A DNA stretch of 64,000 nt from NCBI RefSeq assembly GCF_001677475.2, contig NZ_CP015229.1. One strand, 5' to 3'. The translations under genes were made by a program, and so were the position numbers. The notes under the pieces were generated by a model. That model was not told the DNA's origin. It saw only the letters and a program-made list of their open reading frames with translations, and ran no database searches. Positions 787 through 59,419 of the stretch are shown one piece after another (position 1 is the first letter of the stretch; each line of letters starts with the position of its first letter). Origin of the DNA: Escherichia coli (GTDB lineage Bacteria; Pseudomonadota; Gammaproteobacteria; Enterobacterales; Enterobacteriaceae).

Positions 787-1455
787 TTAGTTTTCCTCTT
801 TTGCGACCAGCATATAGCCAAAGCCGCGCACGGTGCGGATACGGGCTTTGCCCACTTTGTCGCGCAGATTGTGGATATGCACTTCCAGGGTGTTAGTCGA
901 GGGTTCATTGTCCCAGTTATAGATGTCGTTGTAGAGAATTTCCCGATGCACCGGACTGCCTGCTTTGAGCATTAACCGTGACAGCAGAGCATATTCTTTG
1001 GGCGTCAGAATCAACTCTTCACCGCCCATCCATACCTGACGGCGACCCATATTCAGCGTCAGATTGCCAACAATCAGCTCACTTTCGCCCTGATTATTAT
1101 GGCGTCGTAGCAGGGCGCGGATACGGGCGTGCAACTCTTCCAGCGCGAACGGTTTTACCAGATAGTCGTCAGCCCCGACATCCAGCCCGGCGATTTTGTC
1201 TGTAAGGGTATCGCGGGCGGTGAGAATTAACACCGGCAGAGTGTATTTTTTCTGCCGGATACGGGCAAGAAAATGCAGCCCATCTTCATCGGGTAAGCCT
1301 AAATCCAGTACCACCAGGCTGTAATGACCGGCCTCAAGGCTTTGTTCCGCCATCCGCGCGGTTGTCACGCCATCGCACGCGTAGCCTTCGGTTTGCGCCG
1401 CCAGAATCAATCCCTGCAATAACAGCGTATCGTCTTCAACAATCAGAATTTTCAT
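787..1455 (-). CDS. basR: Response regulator BasR/PmrA (OmpR family), 222 aa
   Basis: ORF-track protein [16 protein letters not shown]... recognised as BasR; start overlaps eptA stop by 4 nt (ATGA). Confidence 0.95.
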
Positions 1456-3095
1456 TCACTCACTCTCCTGCAAGTTTGCAGAATATCATCCGCAGCCTGG
1501 TAATACTTCGTCTCAACGCCAGTTAATCCCAATAGCGTGGAGAATAAATTGTCTTGTGAATAGTGTTGCGTTTGCGCCTGTTTTTGCAGGCAGTTCTGGT
1601 CAACCTGATACCGTTTTTGATAATCCTCCGACAGCCACAGCAGCATTGGCACCTGTTTTTGGCTATCCGGGGCGATGGCATAAGGCAGACCGTGCAGATA
1701 GATGCCATTTTCACCTAACGATTCACCGTGGTCAGAAAGATAAACCAGGCTGGTGGTAAATTTATCCTGATGTTCTTTCAGCAGATTAATCGCTTTATCA
1801 ACAATATAGTCGACGTAAACCAGCGTGTTGTCGTAAGTGTTCACCAGTTGCTCTTTGGTACAGGTCTGGATCTCATTGGTGTCGCAGGTTGGGGTAAATT
1901 TCCTGAACTGCGGCGGATAGCGGTTGTAATAGGTCGGACCGTGGCTGCCGATGGTGTGTAAGACAATCACGCCATCACCCTGCAGGTTATTGATGTACTC
2001 TTCCAGCCCGTGGAACAGCACTTCGTCATAGCATTCGCCGTTGATGCACTGACCAGGCAGATTCAGCGCGGTGACGTTCTGGTGAGGCACGCGGTCGCAG
2101 GCACCTTTACAGCCACCATCGTTGTCATTCCACAGCACGTTGATGCCCGCTCGCTGAATGATATCCAGCACGCCTTCCTGGTGCTGTGCCAGCTCTTCTT
2201 TGTAATGCTCACGCGGCATATCCGAGAACATACACGGTACTGAAACTGCCGTTGCCGTGCCGCAAGATGCGGTATTAGGGAAATAGACCACGTTATCTTT
2301 CGCCAATCGCGGGTTAGTTTCACGCGGGTAGCCGTTGAGGGAGAAGTTCTCCGCCCGCGAGGTTTCGCCGACAATCAGGATGGTCAAATTTTTACGTTTT
2401 TCGTTCTGCATTAACGGGTTGCGGTGCGCGTCTTCACCAATTCGCACCAGCGGCAGATTTGCCAGTCGCTGATGGGAGTACCATGACCAGCTGGCAACAA
2501 TGCTGTTAGAGGGGCTTAAGGACTTCACCAGCTCTTTGTTGTTGCGGAACAACGAGGCGTAGTCTTTATAAAACAGTGCGGCGACCAGCAAAATCAGCAG
2601 TACAGAAACCAGAATATTGGCTCCACGGAAAAGAACACTGCGCAGACGCGAGGTGGCAGGTTTGATTTTTATCCAGCAGGCAATCAGCGCAGCAAGCACG
2701 CCGCTGAATCCCAGCGTTAATAACATTTGCGGTGTCATCAGCGCATAACTTTCTGCCGGAGTGGTATCAATAATATTGGCAATCATCGAGCGGTCGATGA
2801 CGATGCCGTAAGTCATTATGAAATATTGTGCAGCCGCGCCAACCAGAATAAACAGGCAGGCCAGCGGTCGATTAAGCCATAAGAAAGAGCTTAGTGTCAG
2901 GACAATATTAATCACGCTGAAGGCGACGACCGGCATCGACAAGAAAACCAGTACGTTATGCAGCGAGTCCAGCGGCAGCGCCTGCAACACCTGTTTAAAA
3001 AAGGCAATATTCAGGCAGATAGAGATATAAAAAGCGGCCAACAATAGCCAGGCGAGTAAATTCAAAGAGGGTCTTTTTAGTAGGCGCTTCAACAT
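1452..3095 (-). CDS. eptA: Lipid A phosphoethanolamine transferase EptA/PmrC, 547 aa
   Basis: ORF 1452..3140 recognised as EptA; the recognised N-terminus [14 protein letters not shown] begins at the internal ATG 3095..3093, so the track ORF is 15 codons over-extended. Confidence 0.9.
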
Positions 3096-3141
3096 CACGG
3101 TGTTTCCATCGAACAAAGTGCGCATATGCTCGCAAAGCAAA

Positions 3142-3158
3142 ATTAAGCCAACCTTAAG
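3142..3158 (-). promoter_or_regulatory. Putative BasR/PmrA box (CTTAAG-N5-CTTAAT on the minus strand) upstream of eptA, embedded in a 14-bp-arm perfect palindrome (3145..3174)
   Basis: Reverse complement of 3142..3158 reads CTTAAGGTTGGCTTAAT, matching the PmrA direct-repeat consensus YTTAAK-N5-YTTAAK; lies about 47 bp upstream of the eptA ATG. Confidence 0.5.
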
Positions 3159-3198
3159 TTCTTAAGGTTGGCTTTTATGTGTGCTGGATTAAGGGGAA

Positions 3199-4536
3199 TT
3201 AATCTTTGCTTATTGGTGCATCTAAGGGATACGGGTTTTTATGCAGCCTGTTGTAATTCAGCGCATACATGGCGGTGATGACCATCAGGGTGACAAATGA
3301 CCACATAACCTCTTTCGCCCCGGACCCCACAACGGCCCAAATGCAGTAGAGGAAGGCAATGGTAGTAACAGCCAGATATGCCGGGCGTGCTTTACCAAAG
3401 TGACCGTGGCCGAGCAGCAGTAACGCCGCACAGGTGTAAAGATATGGCACCAGTGTAAAGATGACCGAGACGGAAGAAACCAGACCGAACTCTTTGGTCG
3501 CGTTTGGTGAAATGCTGCTGAGCTGGAAGATGGTCATCAAAATACCGACGATAATCAGCCCCGCCACTGGCGTACCCGCTTTATTTACACGGGCAAAAAT
3601 CGGTGGGAACAGTCCGTCATCGGCAGCGGCTTTCGCCGTTTGACCCGCCAGCAATGTCCAGCCGCCCAGTGAACCTAAGCAACCCGCAGCTGCGCAGAAG
3701 GAAACAATGGCCCCGGCGGTGTCACCCAACGCCATCCGTGCGGCATCACCGAATGGCGAGGCAGAAACGCGCAGTGCGGCATTAGGGATCATCCCCATAA
3801 TCGCGGTGGTGGAGAGTACATAGCAAACGGCGGCAATCAATACCCCACCAATGGTGGCGATAGGGACATTGCGTTTCGGGTTTTTCACCACACCTGCGGC
3901 AACGGAGGCACTTTCCACACCGATGAACGACCACAGCGTAACGTTAAGGGTACTTTGAATTGCACCGAAGGTGCCCAGGCCGCTGACGTTCCATGCCGCC
4001 ATATAGGTTTCACCACGGAACCAGAACCAGCCAAATACGGCAATCCCGACGATGGGGATCAGCGCCAGCACGGTGGCAACGGCCTGCACGCGGGTGATCA
4101 TTTTCGGACCGACAATGTTCAGCAGGACGAAGATCCACAGCACCACGACGCAGGTGATGGTTAATACCAGTGGATCTTTCAGAATCGGGAAGAAGTAACT
4201 TAAATATCCTACGCCAATGACCACCATGGCGATATTGCCGATCCAGCAGGCCAGCCAGTAGAGGACGTTGGTTTGATAACCGAGAAACGGGCCAAAGCAG
4301 CGGCGGGCGTAAGCGTAAGAACCACCAGGACTTGGGTCGAGGAACGACATTTTGGCGTATACCATCGAGAGCCCCAGCGCACCGATAATCGTCACCAACC
4401 ATCCATAAATGGCAATCCCGCCAGTGGAGGCCAGGTTTGCAGGTAACAGAAAAACACCTGACCCCATAATATTCCCCGACACCATCAGGGTGACGGGGAT
4501 TAAGCCCACTTTGTGAGCATCAGCATCCGAAGACAT
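3199..4536 (-). CDS. adiC: Arginine:agmatine antiporter AdiC, 445 aa
   Basis: Protein [36 protein letters not shown]... recognised as AdiC (APC family). Confidence 0.95.
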
Positions 4537-5612: not shown

Positions 5613-5641
5613 GCAAAAAAAAGCGCGGGGTGGGGCCGCGC
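5613..5641 (-). terminator. Putative rho-independent terminator downstream of adiA
   Basis: GC-rich hairpin GCGCGG..CCGCGC at 5623..5641, followed on the minus strand by a run of eight T (plus-strand A-run 5615..5622). Confidence 0.6.
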
Positions 5642-5758: not shown

Positions 5759-8029
5759 TTACGCTTTCACACACATAACGTGGTAAATACCGTCAATAAT
5801 TTCAGTCCCTTCAGTTTCGTGTTCAAATCCAGGGAAATGATGATCCCAGGATTGCAGCGAGCGTAAATAACTTACTTGCGGACTGTTTTTATCGCCGAAG
5901 TTTTCACCAGACAGCAGCATCGGGATTCCTGGCGGATACGGGATAACTGAGTTTGCCGCAATGCGTCCTGGCAGATTTTCAATGGATACCAGTTCGACAT
6001 TGTTGTCGACAATTGCGTTGTACGCTTCTCGCGGGGTGATTTCCGCCACCGGCAGGCCGGAATAGGCTTCGTTCAACCGTGCGCCAGGGTTGTTTTCTTT
6101 CAGCCAGGCAAACATGGTGTCACCCAGATCGTGAATCCCCATGTTCGCGTAAGTGTCAGGATATTGTTCAACAAGTTCCGGCATCACCTGCGCCAGCGGT
6201 GTGTTGGCGTCATAGTGGCGTTTGAAGGAGCAAAGGGTGTTAACCAGAGTCCCCCATTTCCCACGGGTTACGCCCATAGAGAACAGGAACATAATTTGGA
6301 AGTCAGTGGTGCGGGTAGGCACAATGCCGTGGCGACCAAGCCAGGCAGTGACCAGCGCCGCCGGAACACCGGTTTCTTCCAGTTCACCATCTTCACCCAT
6401 TCCCGGAGCAAGGATGCTGACTTTAATTGGGTCGAGCATACTCCAGTTATCCGGAATATCTTTGAAGCCGTGCCAGCTTTCGCCCGGATGCATTACCCAG
6501 CAGTCCTGAACGGTGGTCAGCAGTTTGGTTGGTGCGTCAGCAAAGTCATAGGTTTTGCCGGTTTGTGGGTCGGTGACGACTTCTTTGTTCCACGGTTTGA
6601 AGAACCAGCTACCGTCAGCGGTGAACTCTTTATACAGCCGCGCCATCGCCTGACGGAAATCAACCGCTTCGTCGATCACTTCCTGCGTCAGTGACAGGCC
6701 GCTGTTGCCGTCCATCATCGACACCGCCACGTCGTTGGATGCGCAGATGGCATACAGCGGGGAGGTGGTGGCATGCATCATGTAGGCCTGGTTGAAGCGG
6801 GAGAAGTTAATCGCCCCACGACCTTCACGTACATGAATATAAGAAGCCTGTGAAAGCGCATTCAGCAGTTTGTGGGTGGAATGGGTGGCGAAAACAGTAG
6901 GACCGTTGTGATCGCCAGGTTCGCCGCGCATGGCATAGTGATCGGCATAGATCGGGTTGAAACGTGCATAGCCGTACCAGGCTTCGTCAAAGTGCAGACG
7001 ATCGGAGGTTTTTTCCAGCAGATCCTGCGCTTCTTTAGCGTTATAACACACGCCGTCATAGGTGCAGTTGGTCACCACGCAGTAAGACGGTTTTTGCCCG
7101 GCTTTGTCTTTGGTCAGCGGGCTTTCACTGATTTTCTTCTGCAAGGTTTCAGGTTGCATTTCTTGCGGATAGATTGGCCCGATAATGCCGTAGCGGTTGC
7201 GGCTTGGCACCATGTAGACCGGTTTCGCGCCTGTCAGCATCAAGCCTTGTTCGATGGATTTATGGCAGTTACGGTCAACGACCACGACATCGTTATCGGT
7301 CATGCAAGCCTGCATGATGGTGCGGTTAGAGCCGGAAGTACCGACGACTACCGACCAGGAGCGATCGGCACCAAATACGCGTGCGGCATATTTTTCGCTT
7401 TCGCCAAATGCGCCAGTATGGTCAAGCAAAGAACCGAGGGAAGTTCGTTCGATGCCCATGTCGGTGCGGAACAGGTTTTCACCATAGTAGTCATGGTAGA
7501 AACGTCCGGCGGGTGTTTTGGTAAAACCAACGCCACCCTGGTGGCCTGGCGCTGCCCAGGAATATTCATGGATGTCGCTATATTTCATCAGCGCGCTGAA
7601 CAGTGGCGGCAACAGTTGCTGGCGGTAGCGGGTCATCGCGGCAACGGCGCGTCCGGCGATAAAGTCGGCGGTATCTTCCAGAATCCAGGCGAATTCATCG
7701 ACAAGCTCCAGCAGATCCCGGTCCATTGCGGCGAGGGCTTTTTCCCGATCGCCCAACAGGAAGACCGGCACGTTTTGTTGGCGCTCATGAAGCTTACCGA
7801 TCAATTGTCTGACGTTTTGATGTTCGTCCGGATGTTCCATTTGATAGCTGAACATCAGGCAGTCAATGGCTTCGTTTGAAGAGAGAATGGCAAAACCATC
7901 ATCAAAGGAGGTGGATTTAATCACGGTAACATTTTGCTGGCTTAAAGCATCTGCCAGACGCTCAACGGCGTTACCGACCCAGGTGTCTTGATGGAGAAAC
8001 TCGCTTTCAACAATTAATACTTTCATCAT
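5759..8029 (-). CDS. adiA: Biodegradative (acid-inducible) arginine decarboxylase AdiA
   Basis: Protein MMKVLIVESEFLHQDTWVGNAVERLADALS... recognised as AdiA; true start is either of the two adjacent ATG codons. Confidence 0.95.
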   Translation of the reverse strand: MMKVLIVESEFLHQDTWVGNAVERLADALSQQNVTVIKSTSFDDGFAILSSNEAIDCLMFSYQMEHPDEHQNVRQLIGKLHERQQNVPVFLLGDREKALAAMDRDLLELVDEFAWILEDTADFIAGRAVAAMTRYRQQLLPPLFSALMKYSDIHEYSWAAPGHQGGVGFTKTPAGRFYHDYYGENLFRTDMGIERTSLGSLLDHTGAFGESEKYAARVFGADRSWSVVVGTSGSNRTIMQACMTDNDVVVVDRNCHKSIEQGLMLTGAKPVYMVPSRNRYGIIGPIYPQEMQPETLQKKISESPLTKDKAGQKPSYCVVTNCTYDGVCYNAKEAQDLLEKTSDRLHFDEAWYGYARFNPIYADHYAMRGEPGDHNGPTVFATHSTHKLLNALSQASYIHVREGRGAINFSRFNQAYMMHATTSPLYAICASNDVAVSMMDGNSGLSLTQEVIDEAVDFRQAMARLYKEFTADGSWFFKPWNKEVVTDPQTGKTYDFADAPTKLLTTVQDCWVMHPGESWHGFKDIPDNWSMLDPIKVSILAPGMGEDGELEETGVPAALVTAWLGRHGIVPTRTTDFQIMFLFSMGVTRGKWGTLVNTLCSFKRHYDANTPLAQVMPELVEQYPDTYANMGIHDLGDTMFAWLKENNPGARLNEAYSGLPVAEITPREAYNAIVDNNVELVSIENLPGRIAANSVIPYPPGIPMLLSGENFGDKNSPQVSYLRSLQSWDHHFPGFEHETEGTEIIDGIYHVMCVKA

Positions 8030-30056: not shown

Positions 30057-30132
30057 TGGTGCCCGGACTCGGAATCGAACCAAGGACACGGGGATTTTCA
30101 ATCCCCTGCTCTACCGACTGAGCTATCCGGGC
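30057..30132 (-). tRNA. pheU: tRNA-Phe (anticodon GAA), 76 nt
   Basis: Reverse complement reads GCCCGGATAGCTCAGTCGGTAGAGCAGGGGATTGAAAATCCCCGTGTCCTTGGTTCGATTCCGAGTCCGGGCACCA, the canonical E. coli tRNA-Phe. Confidence 0.95.
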
Positions 30133-43935: not shown

Positions 43936-44004
43936 GCGATAGTCACAAAGGTAATAGTTGAAATTCCCCTGCCACCTGGCAAAATATCCGTTCAACCATC
44001 AGCT

Positions 44005-44049
44005 TTGCAGGACGACCTGCAAACGCGTCTTTTCACCGGGGACGGCCCC
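44005..44049 (+). promoter_or_regulatory. Candidate guanidine-II (mini-ykkC) riboswitch in the gdx 5' leader
   Basis: Two hairpins each closed by an ACGR tetraloop: TTGCAGG-ACGA-CCTGCAA (44005..44022) and GGGG-ACGG-CCCC (44038..44049), 15 nt apart, 19 nt upstream of the gdx ATG; this is the mini-ykkC architecture typically found upstream of SugE/Gdx-type exporters. Confidence 0.65.
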
Positions 44050-44067
44050 AATTCTCCGGAGCCTGAT

Positions 44068-58999: not shown

Positions 59000-59075
<76 letters not shown>

Positions 59076-59232
59076 AAATTTGAAAAGTGCTGCAAAGCAC
59101 AGACCACCCAATCGCAGTATTTCGAATTGCGACAAGGCGGCAACTGAACGAATCCTTGGGAGCTTACAAAAGTAAGTGACTAAGGTGAGTGAAGGCAGCC
59201 AAGGCAGTAGCGGTTCGAAAGACGAAGATTAA

Positions 59233-59308
<76 letters not shown>

Positions 59309-59343
59309 AAATTTGAAGGTGCTGTAAAGCACAGACCACCCAA

Positions 59344-59419
<76 letters not shown>

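Follow-up and report, generated by a model that had tools for sequence, protein, structure and literature searches.

The BasR/PmrA operator of Escherichia coli eptA is extended into a perfect palindrome that may also act as a leaky adiC terminator

Results

A single-copy perfect palindrome lies between adiC and eptA

We analyzed a 64,000-nt stretch of E. coli DNA (hereafter, the window), in which adiC is followed on the minus strand by a 103-nt spacer, eptA and basR. The adiC coding sequence (3199..4536, minus strand), which encodes the arginine:agmatine antiporter and was assigned from the list of open reading frames and the RefSeq annotation of matching E. coli records, ends with a TAA stop codon at 3201..3199. 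The eptA gene (pmrC/yjdB; 1452..3095, minus strand) encodes a protein of 547 aa, and its ATG at 3095 is the start given in RefSeq. The basR gene (pmrA; 787..1455, minus strand) overlaps the eptA stop codon and follows eptA in the autoregulated operon.

The spacer between adiC and eptA carries the palindrome AAGCCAACCTTAAG/tt/CTTAAGGTTGGCTT at 3145-3174. Each arm is 14 nt long (3145-3158 and 3161-3174); the two show 100% complementarity and have 2 nt between them, exactly as the initial annotation of this locus had described. The adiC-proximal (5') arm, AAGCCAACCTTAAG (3161..3174, minus strand), is made up of an inner part, AACCTTAAG, which includes a third TTAA (3165..3162), and of an outer AAGCC. 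The 2-nt centre (3159..3160) reads AA on the minus strand, and the effective loop in RNA would be GAAC. We measured 24 nt from the adiC stop codon to the palindrome, which corrects the 25 bp stated previously, and 49 nt from the palindrome to the eptA ATG, close to the earlier estimate of about 47 bp. The 24 nt between the stop codon and the palindrome (3175..3198, minus strand) are conserved across genera only at the background level.

Among the inverted repeats of the window with a loop of at most 10 nt, this palindrome is the longest perfect one. In first-order Markov simulations (n = 30) the maximum was 12, and none reached 14. The four other long inverted repeats of the window are GC-rich, and three of them also score as canonical terminators, whereas the core of the palindrome is AT-rich and built from CTTAAG.

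The window is 99.7% identical to E. coli strain 2017.09.02CC, and the adiC-eptA spacer was found in 5412 of the 5426 complete E. coli genomes. The palindrome is identical in K-12 MG1655 (NC_000913.3, 4335640-4335669; coordinates in NC_000913.3 equal window coordinates plus 4,332,495), where the spacer differs from that of the window by one base, located outside the palindrome. In the four strains that we compared with the window (K-12, O157:H7, APEC O1 and AR_0104), all of the spacer SNPs fell within 3175..3198, leaving the palindrome untouched. The blood isolate E. coli GN04171 (locus L068; NZ_CP095520.1, 62317-65447) is among the few genomes without the full spacer. Here, an IS1 end adjoins the adiC-proximal arm just past AAGCC (window 3169/3170), and the stretch from eptA through to a truncated alsA is missing, so this isolate is presumably without eptA-basRS.

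The palindrome is single-copy: E. coli genomes have it at a median of one place, which in every case is the adiC-eptA spacer, and the window has no second copy. We therefore rejected the idea that it is a dispersed repeat, a REP or BIME, or a mobile element. A search of plasmids returned nine Escherichia records and one Citrobacter freundii record with the same adiC-eptA stretch, all of them typed as non-mobilizable. Membership of a curated RNA family was also rejected, as the Rfam matches at this site all fell short of the E-value and gathering cut-offs. STnc630 reached 21 bits against the 55 needed, a weak match that is probably explained by the PmrA box that opens the STnc630/pmrR model. 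Elsewhere in the window, a Guanidine-II (mini-ykkC) riboswitch at 44004-44050 (plus strand) exceeded the gathering score with 49.3 bits, and tRNA genes are present at 30057-30132 (minus strand) and 59000-59419 (plus strand), one for tRNA-Phe(GAA) and three in tandem for tRNA-Gly(GCC).

The eptA-proximal arm carries the BasR/PmrA box

The eptA-proximal (3') arm (3145-3158), together with the 3 nt that follow it, forms the BasR/PmrA box CTTAAG-GTTGG-CTTAAT (3142..3158, minus strand). Its half-sites are CTTAAG at 3158..3153 and CTTAAT at 3147..3142, and it ends 46 nt before the eptA ATG. The initial annotation had recognized this box on the eptA strand; to this we add that its final AAT falls outside the palindrome. 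When the motif YTTAAK-N5-YTTAAK, which has an 11-bp period, was searched on both strands of the 64 kb, CTTAAGGTTGGCTTAAT was the sole match, with 0 mismatches, where 0.15 were expected.

Conservation of the box was assessed in 60 loci encoding EptA relatives, with one genome per GTDB species, of which 57 are enterobacterial. A TTAAGGTT-N3-(C/T)TAA core was present upstream of eptA/pmrC in 57 of the 57 enterobacterial loci, at a constant distance to the start codon. In Pantoea (L042, L045 and L048), further TTAA repeats (CTTAAGGTTCACTTAACCTTAGTTTCTTAAGC) come after the box and none comes before it, a different arrangement of extra half-sites.

CTTAA-N5-CTTAA is a biologically validated PmrA motif, with yjdB/pmrC among its known targets (PMC1525208). 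A 300-bp fragment from upstream of E. coli eptA showed sevenfold induction by Fe3+, which was lost in a pmrA deletion (PMC2904496), and the eptA promoter is described as a binding target of BasR~P (PMC9396075). For binding and induction at eptA we rely on this literature, while the sequence, its conservation and its spacing come from the present analysis. With its fit to the validated consensus, its presence in every enterobacterial locus and a spacing to the -10 hexamer like that of arnB and pmrR (see below), the assignment of the box to PmrA/BasR holds. Thus, the eptA-proximal half of the palindrome is the BasR/PmrA activator site of the eptA-basRS promoter, in line with already known biology. 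We rejected for E. coli the idea that a mirror-image PmrA box drives divergent transcription on the plus strand, as the second mirrored half-site reads CTTTTA and no -10-like hexamer lies at the right distance.

PmrA control of pmrC was first and best characterized in Salmonella, and the original characterization of the PmrA box at the pmrC (pmrCAB) promoter is reportedly that of Wösten and Groisman in 1999. The Salmonella locus resembles that of E. coli in its orthologous gene, in having adiC upstream, in the spacing of the box to a -10-like hexamer and to the ATG, and in its autoregulatory logic. The motif of the box is also the same, reading CTTAAGGTTCACTTAAT and CTTAAGGTTTGCTTAAT in the subspecies. 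In contrast, the Salmonella mirror arm is degenerate, with 5 perfect pairs and a hairpin of -0.6 to -2.6 kcal/mol, and a separate REP-like GC-rich hairpin is located between adiC and the box, within a 131-nt spacer.

In E. coli itself, the boxes of arnB (pmrH) and pmrR (Rfam STnc630) share with eptA the CTTAAGGTT..TTAAT direct repeat and a -10 hexamer (in K-12, TAAAAT at arnB and CATACT at pmrR) placed exactly 10 nt past the box, but they are without the long palindromic extension. Eight bp upstream of the box, K-12 has TTAG at arnB and TTGA at pmrR, compared to TTAA at eptA. Unlike eptA, pmrR has a separate REP-like hairpin, located after proP. STnc630 represents pmrR, a small-protein gene located downstream of basS (around 6380-6556, minus strand, in L006, L007, L010 and L005; 557-706 in the K-12 locus L063), and pmrR also carries a PmrA box of its own in Salmonella and Citrobacter loci. 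The PmrA box of pmrR itself reads CTTAAGGTTCACTTAAT in K-12, and the gene lies just beyond the left end of the window.

A putative -10 hexamer 10 nt past the box predicts the eptA start

Next to the box, we predict a -10 hexamer, GAGCAT (3126..3131, minus strand), which lies 10 nt after it. In an alignment of 29 Escherichia, Salmonella and Citrobacter sequences, A2, A5 and T6 of this hexamer are invariant. The hexamer reads GAGCAT in E. coli, and GAGGAT, CACGAT, CAGCAT or CACTAT elsewhere. A first guess at the promoter (-35 TTGGCT, -10 CATATG, start around 3115) was displaced by GAGCAT because the alignment showed which positions are invariant. A scan of the adiC-eptA spacer for the sigma-70 consensus found no promoter, as expected if the promoter depends on an activator.

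From the position of the hexamer, the eptA transcription start is predicted at 3119..3121 (minus strand; K-12 4335614-4335616). With the start at about 3119, the box would span -39..-23 and the adiC-proximal arm would span -55..-42. The supplements of a TSS study (PMC3415461) and of SMRT-Cappable-seq (PMC6131387) list no mapped start for eptA or adiC. An eptA start upstream of the palindrome was the arrangement that the initial annotation had named as being at odds with its reading; the start predicted near 3119 from the hexamer lies downstream of the palindrome.

This layout resembles the pho box of PhoB, a class II-like site in which a direct repeat with an 11-bp period lies 10 bp upstream of the -10 and replaces the -35. 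The eptA box shares the 11-bp period, the 10-bp distance to the -10 and, by prediction, the replacement of the -35. It differs from the pho box in its half-site sequence, and eptA alone carries an extra self-complementary half-site 8 bp upstream. As GAGCAT is a weak -10 without a usable -35, we hypothesize that phospho-BasR most likely stands in for the -35, as PhoB does at pho boxes. Phospho-BasR would then turn on eptA-basRS from a start near 3119, resulting in positive autoregulation.

The inner part of the mirror arm belongs to the eptA promoter

We then turn to the adiC-proximal arm, which mirrors the box. On the minus strand, its third TTAA (3165..3162, about -46..-43) is located exactly 8 bp upstream of the box, in the arrangement C-TTAA-N4-TTAAGGTT. 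It is conserved across Enterobacteriaceae (loci L024-L057), and its conservation still reaches about 80% or higher for Klebsiella, Kluyvera, Raoultella and their relatives, in which the co-directional gene upstream of eptA is not adiC but ybhK/yvcK (Table S5 of PMC3415461 was also used for this assignment). In Kluyvera, the ybhK/yvcK stop codon is located only a few bases upstream of the third-TTAA element. Since the third TTAA is conserved whatever the upstream gene, the inner 9-nt layer of the arm belongs to the eptA promoter DNA. Judging from its sequence and position, the third TTAA could be an extra inverted half-site or a region of contact with alpha-CTD (around -46). Its 8-bp offset is out of step with the 11-bp tandem register of PhoB-type dimers.

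The outer AAGCC, which pairs with GGCTT, is lineage-specific and lengthens the complementarity to 13-16 bp in some lineages. Perfect stems of 13-16 bp were found in Escherichia and in two C. amalonaticus genomes, while a third C. amalonaticus has one mismatch. Stems of 14-16 bp that contain a single G.U wobble or mismatch are found in the C. gillenii group and in the C. youngae ATCC 29220/werkmanii group, and C. sedlakii, Intestinirhabdus and a few others carry perfect stems of 8-12 bp. As in Salmonella, the mirror arm is degenerate in most of the C. freundii complex. Some Citrobacter genomes (L005 and L016) carry a complete consensus box, inverted, as their adiC-proximal arm.

The extended hairpin is a plausible but weak candidate for the adiC terminator

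The initial annotation had proposed that a single element serves both as the activator site of eptA and as the terminator of adiC. The first role stands; for the second, the geometry proved right but the signal on the adiC strand is weak. On this strand, the palindrome forms a hairpin with a 12-14-bp stem (-15.3 to -17.8 kcal/mol) that begins 24 nt past the adiC TAA. This hairpin is the only one in the 103-nt E. coli spacer, it is retained in the minimum-free-energy fold of its 120-nt context (z = -4.05), and a simple terminator scan flagged it as terminator-like. However, the U-tract on the adiC strand, UUAAUUUUGCUUUG (tail UUAAUUUUGCUUUGC), is interrupted by AA, and the d'Aubenton-Carafa-type score, which we computed with current energy parameters, was -9.5 (threshold 0), ranking 26 in the window. 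Moreover, the core of the stem is AT-rich, with 5 G-C pairs in the 13-pair count of the scan, unlike the clear terminators of the window. The bases of the U-rich tract that follows the hairpin, TTAATTTTGCTTTGC (3132..3146, minus strand), also make up the second half-site of the BasR box and the 10 nt that separate the box from the -10, and the U-rich tail is still conserved in Salmonella although the stem is gone.

Two further features of the region were observed. The U-rich tract at 3132-3144 shows 77% complementarity with the A-rich sequence around the stop codon at the end of adiC (3197-3209, GCAAAGAUUAAUU). In the minimum-free-energy fold, this pairing makes an outer helix that encloses the hairpin, and it could compete with termination or assist it. 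In addition, a strong canonical terminator (GCGCGGCCCCACCCCGCGC then T8; 5623-5641, minus strand; d = +28) is located just downstream of the 5759-8029 ORF (adiA in K-12), in contrast with the weak signal after adiC.

Comparison among lineages gave some support to a role at the end of adiC. Over 27 adiC-eptA spacers, the stability of the palindrome was inversely related to that of the other hairpins in the spacer (Spearman rho -0.80), and the same inverse relation was seen over 8 lineage means (rho -0.71, p ~0.05, with a correction for phylogeny that is only crude). Escherichia and C. amalonaticus have a strong palindrome (-14.5 to -21.4 kcal/mol), a short spacer and no other hairpin. Salmonella and the C. 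freundii complex have a weak palindrome (-0.6 to -10.8 kcal/mol) beside a separate REP-like GC-rich hairpin (-16 to -25 kcal/mol). Since Salmonella does without the long stem, activation does not require it, and its maintenance in Escherichia must have another reason. A Citrobacter double change that restores a pair (see below) and the absence of the sampled E. coli SNPs from the palindrome also speak for the hairpin. Other observations speak against it: the C. gillenii group combines a strong palindrome with a REP-like hairpin, stems of 9-12 bp are kept beside a separate GC-rich hairpin in Intestinirhabdus, L024 and L041, where adiC is absent, and covariation along the stem is not above shuffled controls (see below).

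We searched published data for the ends of these transcripts. The E. coli Term-seq tables (PMC7815308) and the SMRT-Cappable-seq data (PMC6131387) list no 3' end for adiC or eptA, under growth conditions in which the expression of adiC is unconfirmed, and a literature search found no paper on the palindrome or on an adiC terminator. In our model for Escherichia, the adiC transcript can fold a hairpin of -18 kcal/mol followed by UUAAUUUUGCUUUG. The hairpin would most likely act as a leaky intrinsic terminator and/or protect the 3' end of the adiC mRNA, curbing read-through into eptA-basRS. From its sequence and the comparative data, the adiC-terminator role appears plausible but weak, and we put the chances that the hairpin is a real but leaky adiC terminator, or has a 3'-end-stabilizing role, at roughly even.

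Alternative explanations for the mirror arm

Could the whole palindrome act as DNA only? The adiC-proximal arm would then be an inverted BasR half-site, the site of another regulator, or an alpha-CTD/UP-like contact (about -42 to -55), and adiC transcripts would end without any meaningful contribution from the palindrome. The loci in which ybhK/yvcK replaces adiC favor this possibility: the third TTAA is kept there (in Klebsiella, Kluyvera, Raoultella and others), and 9-12-bp arms persist beside separate GC-rich hairpins in genera without adiC. The full inverted consensus box found in some Citrobacter genomes and the sub-threshold terminator score on the adiC strand point in the same direction, and some OmpR-family regulators, such as CusR, bind inverted repeats with a 2-bp centre. 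However, PmrA regulates arnB and pmrR in E. coli and pmrC in Salmonella through boxes that lack a long mirror arm, the 8-bp offset does not fit the register expected of PhoB-type dimers, and this reading leaves unexplained why the palindrome and the other hairpins vary inversely in strength. We consider this possibility a serious contender, albeit a rather unlikely one.

A second possibility concerns the origin of the stem. In three Citrobacter genomes, a C-G to A-T double change restores a pair where the relatives have an A.G mismatch. Over the 29 aligned sequences, 79% of the cells were paired and 1 of the 16 pairs showed a double change, which is not above shuffled controls. As TTAA and CTTAAG are self-complementary, the operator is quasi-palindromic, and template switching within a strand at replication could have perfected or extended it with no selected function. 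Quasipalindrome-associated template-switch mutation is an established mechanism in E. coli, which can perfect inverted repeats and mimic compensation. In agreement with this, closely related genomes differ in stem length (13-16 bp within Escherichia and Citrobacter), the apparently compensatory changes are few and could themselves be template-switch events, and the covariation statistics are not significant. By contrast, conservation of the adiC-proximal arm across genera clearly exceeds that of the flanking background, the sampled E. coli polymorphism avoids it, and the inverse relation with the other hairpins is not expected under mutation bias alone. We thus regard a purely mutational origin as improbable.

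More speculatively, the eptA operator may be a composite of two overlapping geometries built on the same central CTTAAG, one being the classical direct repeat and the other an inverted repeat (AACCTTAAG-NN-CTTAAGGTT, with a 2-bp centre) of which the third TTAA, conserved throughout the family, would be the mark, so that BasR or its paralogue QseB would bind in alternative modes. The hairpin operator may otherwise couple the acid-induced adiC to eptA-basRS, either through leaky read-through or through an effect of BasR occupancy on the 3' ends of adiC. We give little credence to these scenarios at present.

Finally, a hairpin that mainly terminates plus-strand (antisense) transcription from the eptA 5' region, or that is truly bidirectional, seems very improbable: the plus-strand U-tract is better (UUUUAUGUGUG; tail TTTTATGTGTG at 3175-3185) and its score is +8.6 (rank 12 in the window), but there is no plus-strand ORF of at least 80 aa below 3145, no promoter-like site was found there, and the A-rich tract that supplies this U-tract is not conserved between species.

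Discussion

On balance, we consider it probable, by a modest measure, that the palindrome is a BasR operator with its mirror image, in which the inner part of the mirror arm is promoter DNA and the extended stem serves as a leaky terminator or 3' protector of adiC. Where bacterial spacers are compact, weak terminators commonly overlap the promoter of the following gene. The eptA palindrome shares with such terminators, and with bidirectional ones, a stem-loop near a stop codon, T-rich sequence on both sides, a single copy, and a location between two co-directional units. It departs from Rho-independent terminators in its AT-rich stem core, in the interrupted U-tract of the relevant strand and in its sub-threshold score. 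Its stem is dictated by a transcription-factor site and, unlike theirs, is not free to be GC-rich.

The third TTAA and the inverse relation between the palindrome and the other hairpins seem not to have been described before. What is possibly new is, first, that the Escherichia operator has been extended to a perfect hairpin that maybe ends adiC transcripts and, second, that a third TTAA accompanies the box across Enterobacteriaceae.

The eptA-basRS operon governs the modification of lipid A with phosphoethanolamine, and thereby intrinsic tolerance to polymyxin/colistin; the operator analyzed here is the switch of that loop. If the hairpin leaks, strong acid-induced transcription of adiC could raise basRS and eptA independently of the signals sensed by BasS. 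A leaky hairpin, if true, would provide a modest link between arginine-dependent acid resistance and LPS modification.
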